From Synergistaceae bacterium OttesenSCG-928-I11 (lineage in GTDB: Bacteria > Synergistota > Synergistia > Synergistales > Synergistaceae): 25,232 nt of DNA. The position numbers and the translations under genes are program-made. Of the stretch, positions 4,075 to 22,173 are shown in pieces; position 1 is the stretch's first letter, and each line of letters opens with the position of its first letter. The notes below the pieces were generated by a model, which ran no database searches, was not told the DNA's origin, and saw only the letters and a list, made by a program, of their open reading frames with translations. Location: assembly GCA_030266365.1 (NCBI GenBank), contig JAJDHV010000020.1, positions 1-25,232 on the forward strand, written 5' to 3'.

Positions 4075-4530
4075 TCAATCGGCAAAAAATTCGTGAAAGC
4101 CCGGTTCCATCTCCTGAAGCCGGATCATCAATTGCTCCAGCGTGATCGAGGCCATTTTCAGGCGCACTGCTTCGCCGATCTCCGCGTAAGGCTCTGTCAG
4201 CAAGTTGGCGATGTTCCTGCCAAAGAGGCACTGCGGCGCAGGGTGCTCGTGTACCCCGACCAGTTCGTCTAGGGACGCGGAATCCACCGCGTTGTAAACC
4301 TCCAGAAGCGTGATGTCCGCCGGTTTTTTTTTCAGCACCGCGCCGCCTGGGCCGCGGGCGACGTCGATGATGCCCGCCTTCTTCAGGCTGCTGAGCAGTT
4401 TGCGGATTTCCACCGGGTTGTTGCCCACGCTGGAGGCGAGAAATTCGCTCGTGATCTTGTAATCGGAAGGCAGCATGGCGATCATCAAGAGCACATGAAT
4501 CGCCGAGGAACACTTGACGCTGATCCGCAT
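4075..4530 (-). CDS. Rrf2 (BadM/IscR/NsrR) family transcriptional regulator
   Basis: MRISVKCSSAIHVLLMIAML...VGNNPVEIRKLLSSLKKAGII is a typical Rrf2 N-terminal wHTH. Start chosen at the second Met (4530) because GGAGGTGAGG lies 6 nt upstream of it. Confidence 0.85.
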   Translation of the reverse strand: MRISVKCSSAIHVLLMIAMLPSDYKITSEFLASSVGNNPVEIRKLLSSLKKAGIIDVARGPGGAVLKKKPADITLLEVYNAVDSASLDELVGVHEHPAPQCLFGRNIANLLTEPYAEIGEAVRLKMASITLEQLMIRLQEMEPGFHEFFAD

Positions 4531-4543
4531 TCGCCTCACCTCC

Positions 4544-4620
4544 ATGTAGAGTTTATCAAATATTTATACGAATTCAAGATGTAGGTATTGACTCTACATT
4601 ATTGCGTGATAGAATGTAGA
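4544..4620. promoter_or_regulatory. Rrf2/cupin divergent control region with four copies of half-site ATGTAGA arranged as two nested palindromes
   Basis: ATGTAGA at 4544-4550; ATGTAG at 4579-4584; CTACAT at 4594-4599 (6-bp arms, 9-nt spacer); TCTACATT at 4593-4600 paired with AATGTAGA at 4613-4620 (8-bp perfect arms, 12-nt spacer). These lie between divergent Rrf2 (minus) and cupin (plus) genes. Confidence 0.5.
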
Positions 4621-4661: not shown

Positions 4662-5066
4662 ATGGCAAAAAATTACGCAGTGATGAACCTCGGCACGTTT
4701 CAACAGGATTTGGCGGTAAAAGGCAGGGTGATGGCGGGGGCGGATCTGGGGCTTACCGGCTGCGAAATATCCTTCAACCATACGCCCGCGGGGCAGTTCA
4801 CCCCGTTCGTGCACACCCACAAACTGAACGAAGAGGTTTATATCGTGATCGCCGGAAAGGGTGCATTCATGGTGGACGGCGAGGAGTTCGCCATCCGGGA
4901 GGGGAGCGTCATCCGCGTCGCCCCGGCGGGCGAAAGGGCGATCAAGGCCGGGCCCGACGGGTTGACGCATATTTGTATCCAGGCGCAGGCAGGCAGCCTG
5001 ACCCAGGCAACGAGAGACGACGGTGTAATCAGCGAGTCGAAGGCGTCCTGGATGAAGGAAGCTTAA
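4662..5066 (+). CDS. cupin-domain protein
   Basis: Cupin motifs (G..SFNHTP.G.....HTH....E.YIV..G.G...VDGEE, then ..G..IRV.P). GGAGGG RBS at 4650-4655 places the start at ATG 4662 (MAKNYAV), not the ORF-track 4647. Confidence 0.8.
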   Translation: MAKNYAVMNLGTFQQDLAVKGRVMAGADLGLTGCEISFNHTPAGQFTPFVHTHKLNEEVYIVIAGKGAFMVDGEEFAIREGSVIRVAPAGERAIKAGPDGLTHICIQAQAGSLTQATRDDGVISESKASWMKEA

Positions 5067-5365: not shown

Positions 5366-6541
5366 TTATTCTCCGAAGATCGCAGTGGCTCGCTTCATGC
5401 GATCGATCACGTTCACTGAAAACGGGCAGCGTTGTTCGCAGTTTCCGCAGGCGACGCAGTCGGAGGCGTGCGCGCCGAGCGAACGATAATGCTGCCGCAG
5501 GCTCGGCGGAATTTTTTGTTCATTTTGCCCGCCCTCTTGATCCAGCAGGGCGATGTCCAGATATTTGTTGACTGCCGCGATGTCGATGTCGGCCGGACAG
5601 GGGAGACAGTGGTTGCAGTAGACGCAGCTTCCCTTGAATCCGCCGCGCCCGTCCTCGCGGAACGAGCTGATCGCCTCGGTGTAATCGCGTTCGGCGTCGC
5701 TCGCCTCCAGGTACGATACCGCGGCCTCGACCTCTTCCACGGAGTCGTAGCCGACGAGCGCGCTCGCGACGGCGGGCCGGGTCAGCGCGTAGTGGACGCA
5801 TTGTGCGACCGTCAGGGGTTTTGCAAAGGGCGTGTGGTCCGGCGACAGCAGCTTGCCTGCGCCCAGCGGCTTCATTACCGTGATGCCGACGCCACTGCTC
5901 TGGCATAGCCGGTACAACTCGGCCCGCTTGGGGTCGATCGTCGTGACGTGGGCGGTGAACTGGTCGCCCAGCATCTCATTGATATCGGCGTTGCCCGGCA
6001 TCATGTCGAAAGCGGGGTTGATGCTGAACATGAGCATTTCGACCAATCCCTCCTCCACGAGACGCCGGGCCGTCTCCGGGTTGTGCGTGCTCGCGCCGAT
6101 CGCGCGCACACGCCCTTCGCGCTTCAGGCGCTGCGCGTATTCCACGATGCCGTTGTCGATCATGGCGTCGATGGCCTCGTGCGTATCCATAAAAAACAGC
6201 ATCCCGAAATCGATGTAGTCGGTCTGCAAAAAACGCAGCAGATCTTCGAAGTATCGTTTGCACTCCTTCAAATCGCGGCTGACGTCGAACTGTTCCCGCA
6301 GATCGACGGAGCCGATTGCCCCCTGGATCGACATTTTCTCGCGCCGCCCGCGCAAGGCGTGCCCGATGTTCGTGCGGACGTATTCGCCCGGCATGAAGAG
6401 GTCCATGATATTGATGCCGCGGTCCACTGCGGCGGATATGACCTCTTCCACGAACGTGCGCGGTTTGTCGAACAAATGCTCGCTGCCGAGCCCGATCACG
6501 CTGGCCTCGATTCCCGTGTTCCCGACGTAACGATATTCCAT
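5366..6541 (-). CDS. aldo/keto reductase fused to a C-terminal 4Fe-4S ferredoxin domain (Fe-S oxidoreductase)
   Basis: AKR N-terminus (MEYRYVGNTGIEASVIGLGSEH, ...RAIGASTHN...) and C-terminal CVYCNHCLPCP ... CVACGNCEQRCP (2x CxxCxxCxxxCP). GGAGG lies 7 nt upstream of ATG 6541, so the ORF-track start at 6604 is an overextension. Confidence 0.85.
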   Translation of the reverse strand: MEYRYVGNTGIEASVIGLGSEHLFDKPRTFVEEVISAAVDRGINIMDLFMPGEYVRTNIGHALRGRREKMSIQGAIGSVDLREQFDVSRDLKECKRYFEDLLRFLQTDYIDFGMLFFMDTHEAIDAMIDNGIVEYAQRLKREGRVRAIGASTHNPETARRLVEEGLVEMLMFSINPAFDMMPGNADINEMLGDQFTAHVTTIDPKRAELYRLCQSSGVGITVMKPLGAGKLLSPDHTPFAKPLTVAQCVHYALTRPAVASALVGYDSVEEVEAAVSYLEASDAERDYTEAISSFREDGRGGFKGSCVYCNHCLPCPADIDIAAVNKYLDIALLDQEGGQNEQKIPPSLRQHYRSLGAHASDCVACGNCEQRCPFSVNVIDRMKRATAIFGE

Positions 6542-7521: not shown

Positions 7522-7609
7522 AATACAATTTCCTCCCTCTGTTGAGCGACTCACGTTGCCATTTGCTTCATCAGGAGTATATAATTTTCATAAACAGATT
7601 TACAAGTAT

Positions 7610-7636
7610 GCACTTTTTTGACGCATACTTTCATAA
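7610..7636. promoter_or_regulatory. copy A of conserved 27-nt palindromic element AAGTATGC-acttttttgac-GCATACTT
   Basis: Perfect 8-bp inverted arms with an 11-nt spacer. It lies 20 nt upstream of the HxlR-type regulator ATG. It overlaps the -35 (TTGTAA) of a candidate minus-strand promoter for the 7521 operon. A plus-strand TTGCCA-N16-TATATAAT promoter lies just upstream at 7568-7595. A near-identical copy sits at 11994..12020. Confidence 0.55.
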
Positions 7637-7656
7637 AGGAAAGTGTCGTTATGAGT

Positions 7657-8016
7657 ATGAAGGGTTACGAGGGCAAGATCTCCAACATCGCGGACACGCC
7701 GTTCGGCTACACGCTCTCCCTGATCGGCGGCAAGTGGAAGATGGTTATCATGTATTGCCTCATCGAGTGTGGCGTCGTCCGTTACAACGAGTTGCAGCGG
7801 ATGATCGGAACGATTACATACAAGACCCTCAGTGCGCAGTTGAAGGAGTTGGAGGAGGGTGGTCTCGTGTCACGGACGGAATATCCACAGATTCCGCCGA
7901 AGGTGGAATACAGTCTGTCCGAGGACGGTAAATCGCTGATCCCCATCTTGGAGGCCATGTGCGAGTGGGGCGTGGATCACCAGCCGAAGAGGGCAAGGAA
8001 GAATACGCGAAAGTGA
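7657..8016 (+). CDS. HxlR-family (MarR-like wHTH) transcriptional regulator
   Basis: ...FGYTLSLIGGKWKMVIMYCLIECGVVRYNELQRMIGTITYKTLSAQLKELEEGGLVSRTEYPQIPPKVEYSLSEDG is the classic HxlR/YodB-type signature. AAAGGAAAG RBS places the start at ATG 7657. Confidence 0.85.
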   Translation: MKGYEGKISNIADTPFGYTLSLIGGKWKMVIMYCLIECGVVRYNELQRMIGTITYKTLSAQLKELEEGGLVSRTEYPQIPPKVEYSLSEDGKSLIPILEAMCEWGVDHQPKRARKNTRK

Positions 8017-8090: not shown

Positions 8091-10258
8091 CAGCTGGCGA
8101 GTGCGTGGGTTGGATCCTGGTCCTCGGTTTTGAATTGCGACAGGTGTTCCTCGAGCGTCTCGGTCCCGGCCGCGAGCGAGCGTGATTCGCGCTCCACGTT
8201 TTCGGAGACGGCGAGCGTCTGGTTGGTCGCGGTACGGATACTGCCGATGGCGTTGCGGATGCCGCTGGTCGACTCCGTCGTCCTGTGGATGATCTCCAGC
8301 ATCTCGTTGGTGCTGGCGGCCTGTTCCTGCGAGGTCGCCGCCACGCCCTGGATGGAGTCGGAGATCGTGCCCAGCTCCTCCTGCGCGCGGCGGAGATTTT
8401 CCGTCGCATGTTCCGCCTCGCTCTGAACGTCGCGCAGTGCGTCGCGGATGTTGGCGAAGACCTCCTGCGAGTTCCCCGTCTCCTGATCCAGCGAGGTCAC
8501 CAGTTCCGATATCTTCTTCGCCGCGGCGTTGGAGTCCTCGGCCAGTTTGCGCACTTCCTCGGCGACGACGGCGAAACCTCGCCCGGCTTCCCCGGCCCTC
8601 GCCGCTTCGATCGCCGCGTTCAGCGCCAGCAGGTTCGTCTGCTCGGCGATGCCGGAGATTGCGCTGACGAAGCCGGTGATCATACCGACCGAGGAGGAGA
8701 GGCTGTCGATGCTCTGGTCGCAGGCGGTCGTCTGTTCGGCGACCAGAGCGATTTTTTGCACGACCATCTCCACGTCGCGGACGGCGTCTTTGTTCAGGCG
8801 GTCCGTCTGCGCCGCGCGCTCGGCAACATTCGTGATCAACTCGGCGGCGTTGGCGGTTGCTTCGGTGATGCTCTGGGCGCCGGCGTCGATCTGCTGAATG
8901 TCGCGATCGTTGCTCTCGGAGAGGTCGTGCACGTTCTCCACCGCGGCCAGCACGGTCTGGACGTTGGCCAGCGATTCCTGCGACAAGCCGGCGAGCGTGG
9001 CGGAGGAGTGGCTGAAATTTCGCGCCTCCTCGCCGAGCGCGGCTACGGTATTGTTCAGGGAACCCTTTAGGTCGCGGATGGCTCTGCTCATGTCCCCAAT
9101 CTCGTCCGACGCCCCTTCGTAACGCGAGAGGACGTCCTTGTTTCCCGTGCCGCCGGCCGTGAGGTCGAGTTCGCCGAATCGCTTGAGGATCTCAGAGGTC
9201 GTCGTGATCGGCCGCACGATGCGGCGCACCATGATCGTCAGCACGACGCCGAGAATGGACAGTCCTGCCAGCGAAGCCAGCACGATGCGCCAGACCAGCG
9301 CCGAGCGCTCCCGATCGGCGATGATCGACGGCACGGAGAGCGAGAAGGACCAGGGCTTGCCCGTGTCCCCGATCTTGACCGGCTGGTGGCAGAAGGCGGT
9401 ATTTCCTCGCCCGTCCGGTGCGGGAATGACGAAGTACGTGGAGCCCCCCTCCTGGATCATCCGCATTGTCTCGTCGGTGTTGCTCGCCCCTAGCTCGCGG
9501 TAGTTTTTGCCGATGAACGACTTGTCGAAGCGGCTGACGATCACGCCGTCGTTGGAGAAGAGCGTGGCCCGGCCCCCCTCCGGAAGCTGAAACGACGAGA
9601 CGATGCGGTCGAGCAGCGCCAGCGAGAGGTCGATACCGGCAACCCCGATCCGTTTGTTGCCCCGCTCGATCGGGATGCCGATAGTGGTGACGAGCACATT
9701 GTCGCTGGGGTTGCCCGTGTAACTGTAGAGGAAGGGCTCGATGAGCGTCTCCGCCCCGCCCCTCAGCGCTTCGTGATACCAGTCGAACATTGCCACGTCT
9801 CTCTCGCTGATGTTCTCCGTGGTCTGCGTGATCGTGTTCCCGTTGCGGCTGAAGATGCCGATCATCCGACCGGCCTCGTTGTAGCCGTTCCTTCCAGCAT
9901 AGTCCCGGTCCAGGCCGTCGAAGGCGTCCGCTTCGTAGACGACCCAGGCGGAGGTGATGTCGGGCATGTTGATGAGGAAGTTCTTTGTGATTTGCAGCAG
10001 CTCGTCGCGCGCGCCTTCCTGATGTGGATCGAGGCTGCTCACCACGGAGGCGAACGTCCGCAGCGCTCCGATGGACGTGTTGAGGGTGGCCTCCACCATG
10101 TTGCTCGCCGAGGCCGCATTCGCCCGCACCGACTCTTCGGCAGCCCTGGCGCTCGACTGCGATACCTGAAGAACGATCAGCAGGCTCATTATGACGAAGA
10201 CAGACAACGCCACACCCAATACGCCCAACAACATTTTCTTCTGCATGTTCAATCTCAT
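8090..10258 (-). CDS. methyl-accepting chemotaxis protein with extracytoplasmic dCache-type sensor domain
   Basis: N-terminal TM helix, an extracytoplasmic domain of about 250 aa, a second TM helix, HAMP, then the MCP signalling domain ([31 protein letters not shown]). The start is set at ATG 10258 (MRLNMQKK) because GGGTGG lies 5 nt upstream. The track GTG at 10267 is less likely. The 9192..10280 ORF is an off-frame artifact. Confidence 0.9.
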
Positions 10259-10620: not shown

Positions 10621-11715
10621 TCAGTCCGGAAATCCCTTGCGCTTCTTGTTTTTCTCCCGCGCAAACTTGCGCGCGTTCTTCATGCCGCCCACAAAGGCGA
10701 ACATTTCGTTGAGCTTCTTCGTCTCGATCTCCCTGGAGCTGAGGCCCTCGTACGACGCCTCTTTCCCGAGTTTTTGCCAGCTCTGGAAACGCTCAATCGA
10801 GAGCGCGCCTTCGTCGATCGCCCTGCGCACGGCGCAGCCCGGCTCTTTTGTGTGGCTGCAATCGTGAAACCGGCACGCGGACGCAAGTTCGTCGATGTCC
10901 GCAAAGGTCCTGGAGACGTTCGCGCGCTCCAGGCCGAGCTCCCGCATCCCCGGCGTGTCGATGAGCATGCCGCCGCCCTCCAATGGGATCAGTTCGCGCC
11001 TCGTGGTCGTGTGTCTCCCCTTGTCGTCGTTTCTCAGCCCTTTCGTGTCCTGTCTGTCCGCGCCGAGAAGACAGTTGATGAGGGTCGATTTGCCGACGCC
11101 GGAGGATCCGATGAAAGCGACCGTATGCCCCTCTTCGATATGGCGTTCGAGTGCGCGGCAGCCGTCCGCCTGCAATGCCGAGGTGACGTGGACATCCACG
11201 CCGATCGCGACCGCGTTCACCTCGCGAAGCCGCGCCTCCACATCGTCGCACAGATCCGATTTCGTCAACACGACGACGGGCGCAGCACCGCTGTCCCAGG
11301 CGATCGAAAGATAACGTTCCAGCCTGCGCAGGTTGAAGTCGTTGTTCAGCGACATGCAGATGAAGACCGTGTCGATATTGCTTGCCACAACCTGCTCGTC
11401 GTTTGACGTTCCCGCCGCTTTCCGGATGAACGCGCTCTTTCTCGGCAACACGTGGTGAATGATGGCGTTCCCGTTTGCATCCGTATCCCGGTCGAGCATG
11501 ACGAAATCGCCGACCGCCGGAAAATCCGACGCCGCCTTCGCTTCGAAGCGAAATTTTCCGGAGACCTCCGCCATCAGCTCTCCCTTTTGGCTCATGACGG
11601 TGTACAAATCCTTATACTGGGAAAAAACCCGCCCGACGAAAAGTCCCTCGTGTGTGGCGGCCTCCGCGGCGAGGCGATCCGTAAGTCCCAGTTTCTTCAT
11701 ATCTGTTCGATTCAA
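10621..11715 (-). CDS. rsgA: ribosome small-subunit biogenesis GTPase RsgA (YjeQ/YloQ)
   Basis: N-terminal OB-fold, circularly permuted GTPase motifs (VVVLTKSDL ... FIGSSGVGKSTLIN ... DTPG), and the zinc-finger CRFHDCSHTKEPGCAV. TTG start at 11715 has AGGAGGG 7 nt upstream. There is an unusual extra basic C-terminal tail of about 45 aa. Confidence 0.85.
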   Translation of the reverse strand: MNRTDMKKLGLTDRLAAEAATHEGLFVGRVFSQYKDLYTVMSQKGELMAEVSGKFRFEAKAASDFPAVGDFVMLDRDTDANGNAIIHHVLPRKSAFIRKAAGTSNDEQVVASNIDTVFICMSLNNDFNLRRLERYLSIAWDSGAAPVVVLTKSDLCDDVEARLREVNAVAIGVDVHVTSALQADGCRALERHIEEGHTVAFIGSSGVGKSTLINCLLGADRQDTKGLRNDDKGRHTTTRRELIPLEGGGMLIDTPGMRELGLERANVSRTFADIDELASACRFHDCSHTKEPGCAVRRAIDEGALSIERFQSWQKLGKEASYEGLSSREIETKKLNEMFAFVGGMKNARKFAREKNKKRKGFPD

Positions 11716-11993
11716 TGTTCTGCCCTCCTGTGAGTTATCGAAATAACCGATGGGAGGTTCGTGCCATCAGACGCCGCAAACCTCCCGGCTTGCCGCAATC
11801 CTCGTTGTACCGAACTGACACATCAACATGCATCTCCTTCTTGGTTGAAATACAAAAAACGACCACCCCAAGCATCGTGGGCACCTGGCCCACTATAACA
11901 CAACGATGCAATACGAGTATAGAAAAGCAAGGTTCGGGTGTAAATATATAAACAAATTAATTGGATGTTATTAAATGTATTGGCATAGAGCAC

Positions 11994-12020
11994 AAGTATG
12001 CGCTTTTTTGACGTATACTT
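11994..12020. promoter_or_regulatory. copy B of conserved 27-nt element AAGTATGC-gcttttttgac-GTATACTT
   Basis: Matches copy A at 25 of 27 positions, including the spacer. Flanking bases are also shared (caAGTATGC ... ACTTTtATAgA). It lies 64 nt upstream of the Crp-family regulator start, next to an unusually AT-rich stretch (11940-11990). Confidence 0.55.
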
Positions 12021-12083
12021 TTATAGATTGAAATCGCTGGCCAACGCCACTCGATAGAATAAATATGAAGCGAGGTAATTCTT

Positions 12084-12806
12084 TTGCTTGACGCCAAAGA
12101 CATCGAACTGCTTAAAGCGACGTTCCCCTTTTGGGACAAACTGTCCGATGACGAAGCCAACCTGCTTCTCTCGGGCACAAAACCCGTTTTGTACAAACAA
12201 GGCGGCCATATTCACAGCCCGGCAAACGAGTGTGTCGGGGTTCTGCTCGTGAAAAGCGGCGAGCTTCGTACCTATATATTGTCGAAGGGCGGAAAGGAGA
12301 TCACCCTGTTCCGCCTGAGCAAAGGCGAAGTCTGTGTATTGTCGGCATCCTGCCTGATCAGCAGCATCACCTTCGACGTCTTTATCGACGCGCAGCAGGA
12401 CATGCAAGTGCTGCACATCGACTCCGCAGTTTTTTCCCAGCTCCAAGCGGGCAACCTCCATGTGGAGAACTTTGCCCTCAAGGTGGCGGCAAATCGATTC
12501 TCCGACGTCGTGTGGGCCATGGAGCAAATTTTATTCATGAGCTTTGACGTCCGTCTTGCCGTTTTTCTCCTCGAAGAAACATCGAAAAACGGCACCGACA
12601 ACCTCATGCTCACCCACGAACAGATTGCAAAATATATCGGCAGCGCGCGCGAGGTCGTCTCCCGGATGCTCAAATATTTTGCAAACGAAGGAATCGTCCG
12701 GCTGCATCGCGGCAGCGTGGAGATCGTCGATAAGCATGCCTTGAAGAAACTGGTGCAGTCAAAGGCAAATGAGCGCAGGAATAATCAGGAAGCATCGCCT
12801 TCCTGA
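12084..12806 (+). CDS. Crp/Fnr-family transcriptional regulator (cNMP-binding domain + C-terminal HTH with R-E-x-x-x-R recognition helix; no Fnr-type N-terminal Cys cluster)
   Basis: cNMP-binding beta-roll (GELRTYILSKGGKEITLFRLSKGEVCV) and HTH EQIAKYIGSAREVVSRMLKYFANEGIV. TTG start at 12084 as in the track; a GAGGT RBS lies 8 nt upstream. The nearby ATG at 12065 is out of frame. Confidence 0.85.
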   Translation: MLDAKDIELLKATFPFWDKLSDDEANLLLSGTKPVLYKQGGHIHSPANECVGVLLVKSGELRTYILSKGGKEITLFRLSKGEVCVLSASCLISSITFDVFIDAQQDMQVLHIDSAVFSQLQAGNLHVENFALKVAANRFSDVVWAMEQILFMSFDVRLAVFLLEETSKNGTDNLMLTHEQIAKYIGSAREVVSRMLKYFANEGIVRLHRGSVEIVDKHALKKLVQSKANERRNNQEASPS

Positions 12807-13363
12807 TTGTCGTATTTCAGCTTGCAGATCATCTGCGTCATCGTTCCCATCGGACAAATCACGCACCAGGAGCGCGGGCGAAAGAAGACCATAAAAATCA
12901 TGCCGATCAGAACCGACGTCAGCATCAGGCTGTAAAACCCAAACGCGAACTGCGCGACCCACGGCGTCACGATTCCGTCCGCATACGCCCACTGCCAGGG
13001 CAGCCTGAATGTCCAGAACAACGTGATCATTTCAATTAAATTATGTACCCCAGAAAACACCAGGTATGTGCTGAAGAGCATGTTGCCGAACATGGCCATA
13101 AAAAAAGCCAGAAAGCCGTACCGAAACCACTTGCTGTACAAAAAATTCGGCATCTTGTTGTTCAACGAGAACTTTGACCCCAAAAGCGCGAACAGTTGCC
13201 CACGCCCGCAGTAATCGTTGCAGTATCCCTTCGTCCCCTTGATGATGGATATGAGCAGGGGAATCATAAAACAGAACACCCCAAGCCAGGCAAAGAGGAT
13301 ATTGACAAACCCCAGAACGATATAGAGCGAGGAGGTGATCCAAAGATAATCGTACCATTTCCC
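12785..13363 (-). CDS. integral membrane protein of unknown function with Cys motifs (CNDYCGRG; CVICPMG), co-operonic with ferredoxin
   Basis: The track ORF 12785..13567 is a read-through fusion; its first about 65 residues are an off-frame translation of the ferredoxin gene. The real start is probably GTG 13363 (VIKGKWYDY...), with GGAGG 10 nt upstream. The protein has about five hydrophobic helices. Its 3' end overlaps the convergent crp-like gene by 22 nt. Confidence 0.55.
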   Translation of the reverse strand, partial: GKWYDYLWITSSLYIVLGFVNILFAWLGVFCFMIPLLISIIKGTKGYCNDYCGRGQLFALLGSKFSLNNKMPNFLYSKWFRYGFLAFFMAMFGNMLFSTYLVFSGVHNLIEMITLFWTFRLPWQWAYADGIVTPWVAQFAFGFYSLMLTSVLIGMIFMVFFRPRSWCVICPMGTMTQMICKLKYDNQEGDAS

Positions 13364-13368
13364 CTTGA

Positions 13369-13560
13369 TCACTTTTCCCCAACCTCCAACCGGATCAGGC
13401 AGGCTGGGCACGCTTTGACGCACTTGCCGCACCCGACACATCCCGCTTGGTCGACAACAGCCGTAACGCCCCTGTCGATGAAGATCGCGGATTTGGGGCA
13501 GACCTTTACGCATGTACCACACGCAACACAGTGTCGCGTGTCGACGACCGCTTTTTTCAT
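13369..13560 (-). CDS. 2x[4Fe-4S] ferredoxin (63 aa)
   Basis: CVACGTCVKVCP and CVGCGKCVKACP, two CxxCxxCxxxCP motifs. GGAG RBS lies just upstream of ATG 13560. Confidence 0.85.
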   Translation of the reverse strand: MKKAVVDTRHCVACGTCVKVCPKSAIFIDRGVTAVVDQAGCVGCGKCVKACPACLIRLEVGEK

Positions 13561-13592
13561 GAGGCACGCTCCTTCACATCAATGACTTCATC

Positions 13593-13633
13593 ATAATATG
13601 TGAAAATTTAGTGTGCTTCAGTGACCTGGTCAC
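13593..13633 (-). promoter_or_regulatory. conserved promoter/operator module, copy F (minus strand): palindrome GTGACCAGGTCAC (13633-13621), -35 CTGAAG (13621-13616), 17-nt spacer, -10 TATTAT (13598-13593)
   Basis: About 58 nt are shared at about 80% identity with 14764..14818, in the same orientation relative to the downstream gene. The predicted TSS near 13586 gives a 26-nt leader to the ferredoxin ATG. Confidence 0.55.
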
Positions 13634-13679
13634 GCCCGCGAGCAAACTGTTGGAGATGGCGGACGGAAAAACATGCGGT

Positions 13680-13946
13680 TTATTCTGTGTTCACATCGAC
13701 ACGAAACACGTTTATGACATCGGGATCGGGGCAACAGACGCGGATATCTCCGTGCTCTTTGCAAGGCGGCAATTGTCCGCCATACCTCAGGATATTGATG
13801 TAGGGAAACAACACATGCATCGCCATGGGGCAGAGTTTGCCGCGGTCTTCGTCAAAATCGAAAATTTCGCCGACCCTGTGCCCTCGGTGGCAACCATGTT
13901 TCCCCATCCGTTCGACCAGTTCGATTTTTATTTTTGGCTTTTTCAT
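13680..13946 (-). CDS. small Cys-rich protein of unknown function (88 aa; probably TIGR04076-like; paralog of 7207..7521)
   Basis: MKKPKIKIELVERMGKHGCHRGHRVGEIF...CPMAMHVLFPYINILRYGG...CCPDPDVINVFRVD. It shares its architecture with the 7207..7521 protein. AAGAGG RBS sits in the 13-nt gap after the HD-GYP gene, so the two are co-transcribed. Confidence 0.65.
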   Translation of the reverse strand: MKKPKIKIELVERMGKHGCHRGHRVGEIFDFDEDRGKLCPMAMHVLFPYINILRYGGQLPPCKEHGDIRVCCPDPDVINVFRVDVNTE

Positions 13947-13959
13947 CGAACGCCGCCTC

Positions 13960-14640
13960 TTATCGATACAAGGGCAACGATTGCAAATTTATTTTTTCGG
14001 ACAGCGCCTTCTCGTGCTCCGCTTCTTTGCGGCGTTTGCAAATTTCGCAATTGCACTCCAATGCCTCCAAAAAGTCCTCATCGTAGCTCAACAGGGTTTG
14101 CACGACATTTGCGTCTAGCTGTGTCCCGGCGGCTTCTTTCAATATTCGAATCGTATCCTGTATGGATTTTGCCGGGCGATATGCGCGGTAGGTTCGCAAT
14201 GCCGAAAAAGTGTCCGCCACGGCGATAATTCTGGAAGCAAGCGGTATGCCGTCTCCCGACAAACCGTGATAACCTTTGCCATCCATACGTTCGTGATGAT
14301 AAAGAATCCAGTCGCCGATATCCTCAAACATCGTACCTTGAAGTAGGTTGCACCCACTCACAGGATGCTGCCGAATAATTTCCCACTCTTCATCGGAGAG
14401 GGAGCAGTCTTTGTTCAAGACGTTTTCCGGGACCAATATTTTGCCGATATCGTGAAGCAACGCCGCATGAGCAAGTTTTTCCCTGTCGATGGGAAAATGT
14501 CCAGCCTCAAAAATCGCCTCCGTAACGACATAGACATGGTGAGAGTGTCCCTGCGTATATTCATCGCGCGCGCCGATGATGTTGGTGCAAATTTTCAGGA
14601 TTTCGCTGCCCTGTTGCCGATCCATATTCGTTTGGCTCAT
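13960..14640 (-). CDS. stand-alone HD-GYP-type phosphohydrolase (variant motif HHERMDGKGYH)
   Basis: HD domain (ALLHDIGK ... HHERMDGKGYHGL ... VADTFSALRTYRAYR) with His in place of the Pro of GYP. AGGAGAG RBS lies 9 nt upstream of ATG 14640. Confidence 0.8.
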   Translation of the reverse strand: MSQTNMDRQQGSEILKICTNIIGARDEYTQGHSHHVYVVTEAIFEAGHFPIDREKLAHAALLHDIGKILVPENVLNKDCSLSDEEWEIIRQHPVSGCNLLQGTMFEDIGDWILYHHERMDGKGYHGLSGDGIPLASRIIAVADTFSALRTYRAYRPAKSIQDTIRILKEAAGTQLDANVVQTLLSYDEDFLEALECNCEICKRRKEAEHEKALSEKINLQSLPLYR

Positions 14641-14763
14641 TGCATCAATCTCTCCTGTGGCGAGAATTCACGTATCATTTGCGTTTAATTATATGCCATA
14701 AACAAACCGCCGATGTGACATATATCGCGCCGCTTTCTTTGGATCGGCTGTCCATTGCTTTGC

Positions 14764-14804
14764 TGTGACCAAGTCACTGAAGTTCGCGGGATTTTCACAT
14801 ATGA
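14764..14804 (+). promoter_or_regulatory. conserved promoter/operator module, copy C (plus strand): palindrome GTGACCAAGTCAC (14764-14776), -35 CTGAAG (14776-14781), 17-nt spacer, -10 TATGAT (14799-14804)
   Basis: Duplicate of the 13593..13633 module. The predicted TSS near 14811 gives a leader of about 123 nt to the CoADR ATG. The palindrome centre is about 41 bp upstream of the TSS, a class-II-activator-type position. Confidence 0.55.
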
Positions 14805-14834
14805 TGAAACCATTGATATGGAACGGGTTTTGTG

Positions 14835-14901
14835 ATGGAAACGTCGTTTTCAGCAGTTCGATATCCTTGGCGTCTAACAGGAAAATCACCTCATTCTGCA
14901 T
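14835..14901 (-). pseudogene. inverted duplicate of the crp-family gene 5' end (RBS region + first about 22 codons), embedded in CoADR leader
   Basis: Minus-strand sequence atgcagaatgaggtgattttcctgttagacgccaaggatatcgaactgctgaaaacgacgtttcc aligns at about 80% with 12064..12131 (atgaagcgaggtaattcttttgcttgacgccaaagacatcgaactgcttaaagcgacgttccc). It encodes MQNEVIFLLDAKDIELLKTTFP, against Crp MLDAKDIELLKATFP. The 70-codon ORF that follows (to 14689) has no SD and loses similarity. Confidence 0.4.
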
Positions 14902-14934
14902 TTTACTATACTCTGGTAACGGGAGGAATGAAGC

Positions 14935-16593
14935 ATGAATAAGAAAATTCTGATCGTCGGCGGTGTGGCAGGCGGCGCTTCGGCGGCAGCGAGACTTCGG
15001 AGGCTGGATGAGCACGCGGAAATCATCATGTTCGAAAAGGGCGAGTACATTTCCTTTGCCAACTGCGGCCTGCCGTACTACATCGGCGGAGAGATCGAAA
15101 AACGCGCCTCGCTCATCCTGCAAACGCCGGAGGCTTTCCGCGGCCGTTTTAACGTCGACGTCCGCATATGCAGCGAAGTTGCCGCCATCGACCGGACAAA
15201 AAAGACCGTCACGGTAAAAAACCACAAAACCGGTGAGAGCTATACCGAACGTTACGACAGCCTGATTCTGTCGCCCGGAGCGGAGCCAATCAAACCGTCG
15301 ATCGGCGGGGTCGACTCCAAAGGGGTATTCACCCTGCGGAATCTATCCGATACGGACAGGATCAAAAATTTCATCGCAGAGAACAAACCGCACACCGTCG
15401 CAATCGTCGGCGGAGGGTATATCGGCGTCGAGATGGCCGAAAATCTTCACAAGGCGGGGCTCGACGTGACGCTGATCGAGATGCTGAATCAGGTCATCGC
15501 CCCGCTCGACTTCGATATGGCCTGCGGCGTACATCGCCATATCGAAAGCAAGGGCGTGAAGTTGCTTCTTGAGACCGCCGTGAAATCCATACAGGGCCAT
15601 AATGGCAAACTCCAGGTCGAGTTGAGCAAGGGTTCGCTGGACGTCGACATGCTGATCCTCTCCATCGGCGTGAGACCCGAGACCGGCCTTGCCAGACATG
15701 CCGGATTGGAGCTGAACGAGCGCGGCTCCATCATCGTCGACGGGAACATGCGCACATCCGACAAGGACATCTACGCGGTGGGCGACGCCGTGGAGGTGAC
15801 GGACTTCGTAACGGGCCAGAGGACGTTTATCCCGCTGGCAGGGCCTGCCAACAAACAGGGGCGCATCGCCGCCGACAACATTTGCGGCATAGAGAGCCGC
15901 TACACGGGAACGCAGGGGAGCGCCATCCTGCGGGTGTTCGACATGACGGTCGCGACCACCGGGGTCAACGAGAAGACCGCCGCTCGTCTCGGCCTCGATT
16001 ACGACAAGATCTTTACACACCCCACCAGCCACGCGATGTACTATCCGGGGTTTGAATACACCGCCATCAAAACGTTGTTCGATCGGAAAACGGGCAAGAT
16101 ACTCGGGGCGCAGGTCGTCGGGTTCGAGGGCTGCGACAAAAACTGCGATGTGCTTGCAACGGCAATCCGGTTTGGGGCGACGGCAAAAGACCTGACCGAG
16201 CTGGAGCTCTGTTATGCGCCGCCGTACTCGTCCGCGAAAGACCCGGTAAACATGATCGGTTTCGCGATCGAGAATCTGCTGTCGGGGAAATACAGGCAAA
16301 TCCACTGGCACGATTACGGGAAACTGCCGCGCGACGGCAGCGTCATCTTCCTGGACACGAGGATGAAAGAGGAGTCCGAGGGTGCGCCCATCGGAGGATT
16401 TATCAATATTCCGACGAACGAGCTCCGAAATCGGCTGCACGAACTGGACAAAAACAAAACCATCTACGTAAGCTGTCGCGTCGGGTTGCAGGGATATATC
16501 ACATGCCGCATGTTAAGCCAGCACGGCTTTACCTGCTACAATTTCAGCGGAGGATACAGGCTCTACAAGGACCTGTTCGGTGTGAAAAAATAA
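14935..16593 (+). CDS. CoA-disulfide reductase with C-terminal rhodanese domain (CoADR-RHD / NADH-dependent persulfide reductase type)
   Basis: FAD fold GVAGGASAA; redox-active Cys in SFANCGLPYYIGG (CoADR/Nox signature); NAD fold VAIVGGGYIGVE. The C-terminal rhodanese module has the active-site loop CRVGLQG. GGGAGG RBS lies 8 nt upstream. Confidence 0.9.
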   Translation: MNKKILIVGGVAGGASAAARLRRLDEHAEIIMFEKGEYISFANCGLPYYIGGEIEKRASLILQTPEAFRGRFNVDVRICSEVAAIDRTKKTVTVKNHKTGESYTERYDSLILSPGAEPIKPSIGGVDSKGVFTLRNLSDTDRIKNFIAENKPHTVAIVGGGYIGVEMAENLHKAGLDVTLIEMLNQVIAPLDFDMACGVHRHIESKGVKLLLETAVKSIQGHNGKLQVELSKGSLDVDMLILSIGVRPETGLARHAGLELNERGSIIVDGNMRTSDKDIYAVGDAVEVTDFVTGQRTFIPLAGPANKQGRIAADNICGIESRYTGTQGSAILRVFDMTVATTGVNEKTAARLGLDYDKIFTHPTSHAMYYPGFEYTAIKTLFDRKTGKILGAQVVGFEGCDKNCDVLATAIRFGATAKDLTELELCYAPPYSSAKDPVNMIGFAIENLLSGKYRQIHWHDYGKLPRDGSVIFLDTRMKEESEGAPIGGFINIPTNELRNRLHELDKNKTIYVSCRVGLQGYITCRMLSQHGFTCYNFSGGYRLYKDLFGVKK

Positions 16594-18519: not shown

Positions 18520-19092
18520 GTGTTTACGCAATTCGCTACCATATTTCGTCCAGACTCGATCACGCCGGGAGCCGTTAGCTATGCGCTTCGCTCCGTCTTT
18601 TCGGAAAATACGACGATCCAGCTATGGGCCTACAACGTCGAGACGATACTGGCGGAAAAAATCGAAACGGTTCTGCGGCGAGGCATCTTCAACAGCCGAA
18701 TGCGCGACTTTTACGATATTCACGTCCTCACAAAAACCCAGAGCTACGATGTCAAAATTCTCCGAGAGTCGCTCAGAAGGGCAGCCGAGCACAGCGAGTC
18801 CGTTCAGCAGGTAATAAACGCTTCCGCGATACTTGATTCAATTGGGAACAGTAAGGAACTGGCAAAGTATTGGAGCAATTACCGGCGCGAATATGAATAT
18901 GCTCGAGACATCTCGTTCTCGGAAATTATTACCGCTTTACAAGAGTTGGCAGAGCACGTGATGTCGAGCCGCACGAATTATCCGGAGAAGAAGTTGAAGT
19001 TTCGGGTGAATCGTGCGAAGAGCCGGACAGGCAGTCCGCTGAAAGCTGACCGGCTGAAGCCGGTGGATTTAGACCGGGAACTCGGAAATTAA
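18520..19092 (+). pseudogene. 5'-truncated nucleotidyltransferase AbiEii/AbiGii-family (DUF1814) abortive-infection/type IV TA toxin gene; C-terminal about 190 aa only
   Basis: The WAYNVETILAEKIETVLRRG...RDFYDIHVL region matches the C-terminal half of the AbiEii family as I recall it. An in-frame stop lies immediately upstream of the GTG at 18520. No N-terminal nucleotidyltransferase domain, no AbiEi partner gene, and no promoter (a terminator abuts it). Followed by an AT-rich tract. Confidence 0.55.
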
Positions 19093-19185: not shown

Positions 19186-19355
19186 TTAGGATGAAGACAT
19201 CCGTGATTTGAGCGGGGTATTGTAAATTGCGTTGCAGAAGAGCTTGGGGTTTTTTGAGAGAAGAGAGAGAAGAAAATTGTGGAAGGAAAGGATGGTTGGA
19301 AGGAGTATTTCGATACGAGTTTTATGTCATTCTAAAACAAGAGGGGGAAATGGTT

Positions 19356-20060
19356 ATGGGAATATTGAGCAGATTTTCGGACATCATGGGCGCGAATATC
19401 AATTCGCTTCTTTCCAAGGCGGAGGCTGGTAACGCGGATAAGCTTCTGGAAAAGTATCTGAGGGACGCGAAGGAGAACATCGCTCAGGTGAAAGCGGAGA
19501 CAGCGGCGGTGATCGCCGAGGAGACAGGGCTTGCACGCAAACTCGCCGACAACGAGGCGAACTGCAAAAAATACGAGAACTATGCCGTAGCTGCTGTCAA
19601 GGATGGCAACGACGACGACGCCAGGAAGTTTTTGACCTACAAGAGCCACCTGGAGGAGGAACGGGCGGGGTTGTCCTCCCAATACAACCGGGCGAAGGAC
19701 AACAGCGAAAAGATGAGGCAACTGCTCAAAAAACTCTCGAGCGATGTCGATGCCGCAGAGGATAAACTGGGTGAGCTCAAGCAGAAGTTGACCGTGGCAA
19801 AGCAGCAGGAGAAAATGAACAAGCTCGGAGAGAAGCTTGGCAACAACCCCCTGAGCGGCGTCGACAGCCTGTTCGACGCAGTGCAGAAGCGAGTGGATGC
19901 GGCGGATGCCGCGATGGCCCTCGACCAGGAATTTACGAAAGAGACGCTAGAGGTTGAAGATTTGGCGAAAAAATACGACGCGGGTACTCAGGAGGTCAAA
20001 GCCGACCGGGTGGAGGACCAACTCGCCATGCTGAAAGCCGGCCTCAAAAAAGAGGCATAG
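19356..20060 (+). CDS. pspA: phage shock protein A / IM30 family
   Basis: MGILSRFSDIMGANINSLLSKAEAGNADKLLEKYLRDAKENIAQVKAETA is the canonical PspA N-terminus, followed by coiled coil throughout. AGAGGGGGAA RBS lies 9 nt before ATG 19356. The track start at 19227 is a spurious 5' extension. Confidence 0.9.
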   Translation: MGILSRFSDIMGANINSLLSKAEAGNADKLLEKYLRDAKENIAQVKAETAAVIAEETGLARKLADNEANCKKYENYAVAAVKDGNDDDARKFLTYKSHLEEERAGLSSQYNRAKDNSEKMRQLLKKLSSDVDAAEDKLGELKQKLTVAKQQEKMNKLGEKLGNNPLSGVDSLFDAVQKRVDAADAAMALDQEFTKETLEVEDLAKKYDAGTQEVKADRVEDQLAMLKAGLKKEA

Positions 20061-21186: not shown

Positions 21187-22173
21187 ATGGCTTGGTTTGG
21201 ACAGGGAAAAGACACGATCGAGTGGGAAGAGTTCAGGGACGACGTTCTGTTCTACAAATGGCCTGGAAATGAAATAAAAAAAGGCTCGAAGCTGATTATT
21301 CGCACAGGGCAGAACGCGATATTTTACTCCAACGGACAGATAGAGGGCATCTTCAAGGACGAGGGGAATTTCGACATCGAGACGCAGATCACACCATTTC
21401 TCTCCTCACTGAAGGGCGTTTTTTCTCTTCGCTCGGACACCGGCATGAGGGCGGAGGTCTATTTTGTCAACGCAAAACAGCTTCTGCTTCCCTGGGGGAC
21501 GAGGCAGCGTATCATGATCCCATCGCCGGAGGTGCCGTCGGGGATACCGGTCGGATGCAACGGAAACTTGATCGTGGAGTTCCGCGATTACTTGACCTTT
21601 ATCAAAAAAGTGGCGGGCGTTAAATCCACCTATTCGCTCGACGATATCTCCGAGCGACTGATGGGCGTCTTAAACCCCATCATCGCCGAGTGCATGCTGG
21701 GCGGGCAGCAGCAGATCGGTGTAAACGCGCTCATCGGGCTCCAGGCAAACAGCCGCGCTCTCGGCAAACAGATGACGGCGGAGCTCGACAAGGAGCTTCT
21801 CGACATCGGTCTCGGCGTGGCGAGCCTGAATATCCAATCCATCAACTACCCCAAGGAAGTTCAGGCGATGGCCGAGAAAGTGGCGGCGCAGTCTTTTGTC
21901 GGCGATGTCGGCAAGTACGCGAACATCGCCATGGCAGACAGCTTCGGCAAGGAGGGCGGCGGCGGCGCGGCCGCGCAGATGGCGCAGATGGCGATGGGGA
22001 TGCAGATGGGGCAACAGATGGCAGCGGGCATGCAGCCGCCTGCGCAGCAGCAACCCGCCCAACCGAGTGCTCCGGTGCCCCCGGCGGCCCCGGCGGGGGA
22101 CAAGTTCTGTCCCACGTGCAGGAAGATGGTCGCCACCAAATTCTGCCCGGACTGCGGAACGCCGACCGTGTGA
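21187..22173 (+). CDS. SPFH/band-7-like (YdjI-like) protein with Gln/Met/Ala/Pro-rich low-complexity linker and C-terminal zinc ribbon
   Basis: N-terminal about 230 aa has an SPFH-like fold (YdjI-like placement after the ydjG-like gene). The linker is AAAQMAQMAMGMQMGQQMAAGMQPPAQQQPAQP. The C-terminus is CPTCRKMVATKFCPDCG. Confidence 0.65.
   Translation: MAWFGQGKDTIEWEEFRDDVLFYKWPGNEIKKGSKLIIRTGQNAIFYSNGQIEGIFKDEGNFDIETQITPFLSSLKGVFSLRSDTGMRAEVYFVNAKQLLLPWGTRQRIMIPSPEVPSGIPVGCNGNLIVEFRDYLTFIKKVAGVKSTYSLDDISERLMGVLNPIIAECMLGGQQQIGVNALIGLQANSRALGKQMTAELDKELLDIGLGVASLNIQSINYPKEVQAMAEKVAAQSFVGDVGKYANIAMADSFGKEGGGGAAAQMAQMAMGMQMGQQMAAGMQPPAQQQPAQPSAPVPPAAPAGDKFCPTCRKMVATKFCPDCGTPTV

Follow-up and report, generated by a model that had tools for sequence, protein, structure and literature searches.

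In the 25,232-nt stretch of DNA analysed here (the window; contig JAJDHV010000020.1 of Synergistaceae bacterium OttesenSCG-928-I11, positions 1 to 25,232), two copies of a promoter-like module, A and B, are oriented toward a ferredoxin operon and toward a gene encoding a CoA-disulfide reductase with a C-terminal rhodanese domain (CoADR), respectively, and a gene for a Crp/Fnr-family regulator lies nearby at 12084. An earlier note on this DNA had reported the two copies at 13636..13577 (minus strand) and 14761..14818 (plus strand), and both are present at those positions. The modules form inverted repeats that bracket a 1.1-kb HD-GYP/TIGR04076 operon. The genes and module elements are organized as follows.

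12084..12806, plus strand: Crp/Fnr-family regulator, 240 aa, candidate operator-binding protein (Pfam HTH_Crp_2, Crp and cNMP_binding)
12785..13372, minus strand: membrane protein with a C-terminal CxxCP (Fer4_5) motif, second gene of the ferredoxin operon; its GTG start overlaps the ferredoxin stop
13369..13560, minus strand: 2x[4Fe-4S] ferredoxin, 63 aa, first gene after module A (Pfam Fer4 families)
13577..13637, minus strand: module A, predicted activator-dependent promoter of the ferredoxin/membrane-protein operon (from sequence, a position weight matrix (PWM) and the orthologous promoter of the related locus L081)
13633..13621, minus strand: module A operator core GTGACCAGGTCAC, centre 13627
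13621..13616, minus strand: module A -35-like CTGAAG, 17-nt spacer to the -10
13598..13593, minus strand: module A -10, TATTAT; predicted start ~13586
13578-13584, minus strand: module A CATTGAT block
13680-13946, minus strand: TIGR04076-family gene, between the inverted modules
13960-14640, minus strand: HD-GYP-type (HD_5) gene, between the inverted modules
14761..14818, plus strand: module B, second copy, oriented toward the CoADR gene (gapless alignment to the L081 ferredoxin promoter)
14765-14777, plus strand: module B operator core GTGACCAAGTCAC, centre 14771
14777-14782, plus strand: module B -35-like CTGAAG, 17-nt spacer to the -10
14800-14805, plus strand: module B -10, TATGAT; predicted start ~14812
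14811-14817, plus strand: module B CATTGAT block
14935..16593, plus strand: CoADR, 552 aa, downstream of module B (Pfam, NCBIfam)

The similarity between the two intergenic regions is far above background, as had been claimed. Their local alignment scores 53, compared with a mean of 16.0 (sd 2.1, maximum 31) for 2000 shuffles (z = 17) and with 24 for the next best unrelated 300-nt chunk of the window, and a repeat search pairs the modules over 43 nt at 81% identity (repeat I2). Both modules share the same order of elements, i.e., the palindrome, TGAAG, eight variable bases, ATTTTCACA, the -10 (TATTAT in A, TATGAT in B) and, later, CATTGAT. Identity between A and B follows these blocks, being 17/18 over the palindrome plus TGAAG, 2/8 over the next bases, 12/12 over ATTTTCACATAT, 6/6 over GATGAA, 0/2 over the following two and 7/7 over CATTGAT. 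While the conserved blocks are identical at 42/43 positions, 5 of 14 third codon positions differ in an adjacent remnant of a regulator gene described below. The palindrome is perfectly symmetrical in copy A (6+1+6) and 5+3+5 in copy B, scoring 14.0 and 22.7 bits, respectively, with the PWM. Of the shared pattern described in the earlier note, the blocks stand, but the single-T indel does not: the copies differ by three nucleotides (A, CACATAT-TAT-GATGAA; B, CACATAT-GATGAA). This indel falls at the -10 or beyond it and leaves 22 nt between palindrome and -10 in both copies. In the whole window, GTGA-N5-TCAC occurs only at the two module sites, which are also the only PWM matches of at least 8 bits. 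A second palindromic operator formed by ATTTTCACA...TGAA was considered and rejected, as the arms are spaced differently in the two copies and L081 lacks the block.

A generic sigma-70 scan returns no canonical promoter at module A or module B, and a terminator scan finds none between module B and the CoADR start (14935). Rfam covariance models match no known RNA family, riboswitch or leader, in 11800-14959. On the minus strand at 14960-15128, antisense to the CoADR 5' coding region, there is a sub-threshold match to the Vibrio antisense RNA AS7 (V_AS7; 82.4 bits vs a gathering threshold of 90), which probably reflects coding-sequence conservation rather than an RNA gene, as many of the predicted pairs are non-canonical.

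We next compared 80 loci, fetched solely for encoding an orthologue of the 12084 regulator; seven loci were added later. When every 5-mer inverted repeat with a spacer of 0-9 was counted in the 80 loci, TGTGA-N5-TCACA ranked first, with 27 occurrences observed and 0.9 expected, and the related GTGAC-N3-GTCAC and GTGAT-N3-ATCAC ranked second and fourth. The operator consensus, TGTGAYNWNRTCACA, derived from 76 distinct operators, is a 15-bp palindrome, and a site of at least 12 bits is found in 61 of the 80 loci. The sites concentrate in the first kilobase around the regulator gene: their density is 3.2 per 10 kb up to 0.5 kb away and about 15-fold lower, 0.22 per 10 kb, at 4-6.5 kb. Of 93 PWM sites, 74 are intergenic. 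Both window copies carry five bases between the GTGA/TCAC half-sites rather than the canonical six of the CRP type or four of the FNR type. The earlier note had called a spacing one base pair below that of E. coli CRP unusual if real; it is real, and since GTGA-N5-TCAC is found 51 times in the related loci against 11 for N6 and 7 for N4, the one-base-short spacing is the rule for the whole subfamily.

Two variants of this arrangement were also seen among the loci. About 75 nt upstream of the CoADR start in L014 (near 2417), the palindrome TTTGAC-TAC-GTCAAA keeps the same N3/N5 geometry with an FNR-like T for G; it lies between the CoADR and regulator genes and may be a variant operator. In L083 (~6000-6056) and L085 (~8640-8696), the main operator is accompanied, at ~20 nt, by a second palindrome, GGTGACATAT(A/G)TCACG. 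This second palindrome lies between two divergent genes, one encoding a DsbD/AhpC fusion and the other unannotated and followed by a ferredoxin gene, from which a CGGC-domain gene separates it in L085. These are possible tandem sites.

The position of the operator relative to the promoter is equally regular. We scanned 90 sites in both orientations for a -10 (TAnnnT, at least 5/6 matches) at spacings of 10-39 after the 13-bp core. Among the 90 sites there are 81 cases with the -10 at 21-23 nt from the palindrome (55 at 22 nt, 18 at 21 nt, 8 at 23 nt), whereas every other spacing gives 0-5 cases. With the -10 placed at -12 to -7, a distance of 22 nt from the core puts the palindrome centre at about -41, the predicted class II position; class II CRP/FNR promoters of E. 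coli, e.g., galP1 and FNR-activated promoters, have their site centred at -41.5. The -35 hexamer matches the consensus at only 0-3 of 6 positions in all 81 promoters and is usable in none of them, evaluated mainly at spacer 16 since other spacers overlap the palindrome. In oriented operators, G is found at +8 in 95% and A at +9 in 92%. This conservation is confined to the promoter side; C at the mirror position -8 is present in 21%. With a 17-nt spacer, these bases correspond to G-33 and A-32 of the -35 hexamer, so CTGAAG lies where the earlier note had put it; its placement of the palindrome centre 41-42 bp upstream of the predicted transcription start likewise agrees with the predicted -10 at 21-23 nt.

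The candidate reader of these operators is the regulator at 12084, which no specific NCBIfam family claims. Thousands of homologues exist, and we aligned 25 of them, down to 60% identity. The recognition helix is AREVVSR, in which GSAREVVSRMLKYF is invariant across the 25 homologues. Such R-E-x-x-x-R helices read TGTGA/TCACA half-sites, as R180/E181/R185 do in CRP, and the earlier match of this helix (REVVSR in all 25) to GTGA/TCAC half-sites is thus upheld at the level of sequence. Three cysteines, C50, C84 and C90, are also invariant, and none of the invariant cysteines falls in the N-terminal 49 residues. The nearest solved relative is PDB 3DV8 from Eubacterium rectale (E = 1.6e-56; 5.7e-77 to the family profile). 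The next nearest, and the closest characterised relative by sequence, is CooA (E = 5.7e-15), with the C84-x5-C90 loop aligning with the CooA haem-ligand loop C75-M-H77...C80.

The genes associated with the sites are largely thiol-redox and electron-transfer genes. Directly downstream of sites we find thioredoxin in 32 loci, CoADR-rhodanese and TrxB-like reductases in 10, the CxxCP membrane protein in 6, small ferredoxins and flavodiiron proteins in 5 each, and DUF255 thioredoxin-domain proteins in 2. Thioredoxin is thus the predicted core target of the subfamily elsewhere, which the earlier note had overlooked. For ferredoxin orthologues, 5 of 8 loci (L081, L052, L055, L026 and L038) carry a site 64-88 nt ahead of the start codon, compared with 67 nt in the window. 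For CoADR genes the count is 11 of 21 loci, with the site either immediately in front or separated from CoADR by a gene that starts beside the site; clustering of the downstream genes suggests that this intervening gene is a thioredoxin gene. Homologues of CoADR adjoin the regulator in 20 of the 80 loci, and membrane-protein orthologues (60-87% identical) always follow the ferredoxin gene.

The closest relative, L081, from a Synergistaceae metagenome-assembled genome (MAG) whose regulator is 86% identical, is arranged as IS3 - regulator -> <- membrane protein <- ferredoxin. Its ferredoxin promoter reads TGTGACTAAGTCACAGAA-N18-TATGAT-GTAAC-CATTGAC and aligns without gaps with module B. In other relatives, the regulator lies beside trxA-trxB-ferredoxin operons, DsbD/AhpC fusions, rhodanese or P-type ATPase genes. 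The small regulon proposed in the earlier note stands for ferredoxin and CoADR but not for the divergent HD-GYP operon. An upstream site precedes 0 of 5 HD-GYP homologues, and no -10 is found at 21-23 nt leftwards of site B, toward the HD-GYP operon, which we therefore rejected as a target; the divergent HD-GYP gene of L012, although ~100 bp away from a site, has a -10 of its own. HD_5 genes nonetheless recur in related clusters (a ferredoxin - membrane protein - ArsR - HD_5 operon in L082; also L085), so that their association is conserved although no operator precedes them.

Taken together, these data suggest that each module is a complete activator-dependent promoter read by the 12084 regulator, a reading to which we assign a probability of about 0.78. 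A regulator dimer would bind the 15-bp palindrome centred ~41 bp upstream of the transcription start, where the palindrome overlaps a degenerate -35 (CTGAAG) situated 17 nt from a good -10. As at class II CRP/FNR promoters, RNA polymerase would then be recruited by the bound regulator, the promoter being too weak to work unaided. Module A would drive the ferredoxin/membrane-protein operon, and module B would drive, or add regulated transcription to, the CoADR gene via a ~124-nt leader.

The region between module B and CoADR preserves traces of how module B may have arisen. One piece of a second regulator gene, and probably another, can be recognised there.

14837..14892, minus strand: regulator-gene remnant, ribosome-binding site (RBS) plus codons 1-15, 56 nt (repeat I1, an 80% inverted copy of 12072-12127)
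14822..14834, minus strand: probable second remnant piece CACAAAACCCGTT, an exact 13-mer of regulator codons 31-35 (~12175-12187)

The remnant is divergent from CoADR across a 54-nt gap and sits inside the predicted module-B 5' untranslated region. Its coding part is identical to the 12084 regulator at 36 of 44 positions and to the L081 regulator at 40 of 44, and 7 of the 8 differences from the 12084 gene are synonymous, which argues that the remnant was once, and for a long time, a working gene. The 13-mer CACAAAACCCGTT keeps the order and strand of the regulator, directly abuts module B and has a rough chance expectation of ~1e-3; because MAFFT did not align it, this piece is only probable, and we presume that it marks a deletion junction. 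A further resemblance, of the module B reverse complement to a continuation of the remnant (KPV...PAN), was rejected, as homology in MAFFT ends at codon 15 plus the probable 13-mer.

CoADR is likewise divergent from a regulator gene, there intact, in the Treponema MAG locus L082 (gap of 52 nt) and in other CoADR-regulator loci, and the arrangement regulator -> <- target <- promoter recurs across loci. Given the remnant beside it, module B is probably a ferredoxin-type promoter fused to CoADR by deletion. In the simplest history, the cassette regulator -> <- membrane protein <- ferredoxin <- promoter would once have been present twice. A deletion running from the 5' leader of the second ferredoxin operon into codon 36 of its regulator would have taken out most of the regulator gene together with the ferredoxin and membrane-protein genes, leaving the promoter to read through the stub into CoADR. 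If so, the stub beside module B would clearly exemplify how a deletion can capture a promoter, here on a horizontally moving island.

The predicted CoADR 5' leader (14812-14934) is also antisense to the RBS and first 15 codons of the resident regulator mRNA (12072-12127), with a duplex energy of -76 kcal/mol vs -39 +/- 5 for shuffles. Feedback of the leader in trans on the regulator mRNA is possible but entirely speculative.

Several observations weigh against reading both modules as working promoters of this regulator. Operator A reaches only 14 bits because both of its outer positions are off-consensus (cGTGA...TCACt). As many of the loci are phylogenetically related, the raw counts overstate independence, though 76 distinct operators remain. 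The link between site and regulator is one of co-localisation, in a sample drawn entirely from loci that encode the regulator. No genome with the pre-deletion arrangement was found among the loci examined, and in this sense we infer the deletion history rather than read it from an intermediate. Moreover, no site is found for ten CoADR genes that stand divergent to an intact regulator gene; weak sites in front of them were rejected as operators, since none exceeds background. Their transcription appears to rely on a -10-like element located 20-35 nt ahead of the ATG; the window CoADR has such an element as well (TACTATACT, ~14905-14913). Module B would thus be an added, lineage-specific input to CoADR, and it may be dispensable or a relic. 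Pressed further, and with the remnant showing that B arrived by rearrangement, this would make module B a non-functional fossil of a deleted second ferredoxin cassette, CoADR using its own short promoter and module A alone being at work. We consider this unlikely. Module B retains an intact operator, -35-like element and -10 at the proper spacing, it outscores A, the functional blocks are near-identical while the 8-nt filler matches at 2/8, no terminator separates B from CoADR, and CoADR genes elsewhere are apparently under site control in 11 of 21 loci.

The nature and identity of the binding protein could also be otherwise. A site overlapping the -35 position would suit a repressor that occludes the -35 region of a promoter active without it, and Crp/Fnr proteins can repress; HcpR is predicted to do so, but at sites over the -10 box of the sat and apsAB promoters (PMC545781). 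Repression is nevertheless quite improbable here: a usable -35 is found in 0 of 81 promoters, the generic promoter scan is empty at both modules, and the fixed phasing of 21-23 nt to the -10 is a signature of activation, as repression needs no such precision. Slimmer still is the chance that another factor, e.g., of the ArsR or HxlR type, binds the palindrome and the Crp/Fnr gene is merely a frequent neighbour. ArsR/HxlR-like genes do occur in L082 and L085, and the window has an HxlR gene, but that gene has its own, different palindrome, and no other regulator gene is common to the loci. Indeed, the motif ranked first in loci chosen only by their Crp/Fnr orthologue, its TGTGA/TCACA half-sites fit an R-E-x-x-x-R helix as in CRP, and the -41 position is typical of the Crp/Fnr family. 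Finally, the two inverted copies flanking a 1.1-kb segment, within an island whose relatives carry an IS3 transposase (L081) and serine recombinases (L086, L087), might be taken for a dispersed 58-mer of the miniature inverted-repeat transposable element (MITE) or repetitive extragenic palindromic (REP) type unrelated to promoters, an alternative that the earlier note had itself raised. We practically discount it. Only two copies exist within the 25 kb, and an exact-pattern scan of the JGI metagenome collection with GTGACCNNGTCACTGAAGN8ATTTTCACA gave 0 matches. The module unit has neither terminal inverted repeats nor target duplications, its conservation maps onto promoter elements, both copies lie at a fixed promoter distance from a gene, and the orthologous position upstream of the same gene is kept in L081. 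We thus favour activator-dependent promoters under the 12084 regulator at both modules.

As for the signal, a regulon that combines thiol-repair with low-potential electron-transfer proteins makes a sensor of thiol-oxidative or sulfane-sulfur stress the most likely reading, the stimulus being disulfide, persulfide/sulfane-sulfur or oxygen-derived, yet we hold this reading at somewhat less than even odds. Sensing would involve the three invariant cysteines at the place of haem binding in CooA, through either a cofactor or a cysteine switch.

The subfamily is distributed in Clostridia, including Acetobacterium and Faecalibacterium, and in mobile islands of Synergistota and Spirochaetota. How thioredoxin and CoA-based thiol repair are induced in strict anaerobes is largely unexplained, and a 2024 study of Clostridioides difficile thioredoxin invokes "a common still uncharacterized regulator" (PMC10880999). 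The regulator orthologue of C. difficile, in locus L025 (6001-12642; OX244046.1), has as neighbours a holin gene, a Mutator-family transposase and a fragment that resembles TcdA/TcdB and contains choline-binding repeats. With no operator detectable near it and a strain context this atypical, the locus is uninformative. What the present analysis offers is a candidate regulator family with a crystal structure (3DV8), an operator, TGTGAYNWNRTCACA, at a predicted -41, a defined regulon and 87 related loci.

In the window, 11500-15000 has a low G+C content of 0.48-0.53, compared with mostly 0.53-0.68 elsewhere, and the closest regulator homologues come from Synergistaceae, Treponema and Clostridia of the same termite-gut data set. 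The cassette has mobile neighbours in relatives, namely an IS3-type transposase in L081 (1-1066) and large serine recombinases in L086 (95-4432) and L087 (1104-2249), which suggests that it travels on mobile DNA between phyla. The regulator cassette has the look of an island that moves horizontally.

A second duplicated palindromic element, unlike the modules, is found at 11992-12025 and 7602-7635 (31/34 identical; arms AAGTATGC-N11-GCATACTT), with a weaker copy at 4962-4983. One copy lies ~60 nt upstream of the Crp/Fnr regulator start. The other precedes an HxlR-family regulator gene (7654-8016) by 18 nt, and this gene is transcribed divergently from genes for an FMN reductase and an aldo/keto reductase. 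That the palindrome is common to both genes suggests that the Crp/Fnr gene is itself under an HxlR-type, typically thiol-sensing, regulator. The window further contains an Rrf2-family regulator gene (4075-4545) and, downstream, genes for an AbiEii-type toxin domain (18520-19092), PspA/IM30 (19227-20060) and an SPFH/Band-7 protein (21187-22173), none of which was linked to the modules.

CoADR-rhodanese, rhodanese and thioredoxin-type genes are known targets of CstR, a CsoR-like protein of Firmicutes, and of BmoR, a MarR-family protein of Bacteroides fragilis, both of which act as repressors that respond to thiol or sulfur stress. The regulator described here differs in being of the Crp/Fnr type and a probable activator, to which CstR and BmoR are unrelated. 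Within the Crp/Fnr family, an FNR identity, which would entail an N-terminal cysteine cluster and the motif TTGAT-N4-ATCAA, was rejected: the invariant cysteines are C50, C84 and C90 only, and the NCBIfam Fnr model gives the regulator 29 bits where its cutoff is 228. The haem-based CO sensor CooA, known from Rhodospirillum rubrum and Desulfovibrio, is similar in that the cysteine-rich loop of our regulator aligns with its haem-ligand loop. The CooA operator, however, is the 16-bp TGTCGGCnnGCCGACA (PMC545781), the window holds no CO dehydrogenase genes, and the regulator is not demonstrably CooA, an identity we rejected on motif, cysteines and gene content. HcpR, a Crp/Fnr regulator of anaerobes, offers a parallel for a small ferredoxin gene under such a protein, as comparative genomics predicts that it activates the ferredoxin gene frdX from a site near the -35 (PMC545781). 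Its motifs, in contrast, are of the TTGTGA-N6-TCACAA or the FNR-like TTGAC-N4-GTCAA type (PMC545781), and its marker, the hybrid-cluster protein gene hcp, is absent from the window and from the site-linked targets; we therefore rejected an HcpR identity.

The protein of known structure that it resembles most, 3DV8, belongs to the same subfamily and keeps both the three cysteines and an REV(I/V)(T/S)R helix. A literature search found no function, ligand or DNA site reported for this structural-genomics entry, and in the paper citing it, it serves only as the modelling template for PgRsp (PMC6955866). In the full-text literature searched, RegPrecise not being covered, we likewise found no description of a 12084-type regulator, the N5 motif or the regulon, and the modules look like real cis-regulatory elements of an apparently undescribed Crp/Fnr-subfamily regulon with an odd-spaced operator. 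In a joint reading, which we put forward tentatively, strict anaerobes would use the 3DV8 subfamily as a dedicated activator for the genes of thioredoxin, thioredoxin reductase, CoA-persulfide reductase and ferredoxins, sensing thiol-oxidative or sulfane-sulfur stress at its three-cysteine site and binding half-sites one base pair closer than in characterised members, hence with a different dimer-DNA geometry.

In overall design, the modules most closely recall the class II CRP/FNR promoters of E. coli, with which they share a TGTGA/TCACA inverted repeat over a poor -35, fixed phasing to the -10 and an R-E-x-x-x-R helix in the predicted activator. They differ in the spacer, which is 5 bp here (a 15-bp palindrome with a central base pair) vs 6 bp for CRP and 4 bp for FNR, in a sensor domain without a cAMP-type signature or the N-terminal cysteine cluster of FNR, and in a regulon of thiol-redox enzymes. 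Compared with these systems, the odd half-site spacing provides a test of how far the Crp/Fnr scaffold can shift its DNA-binding geometry.

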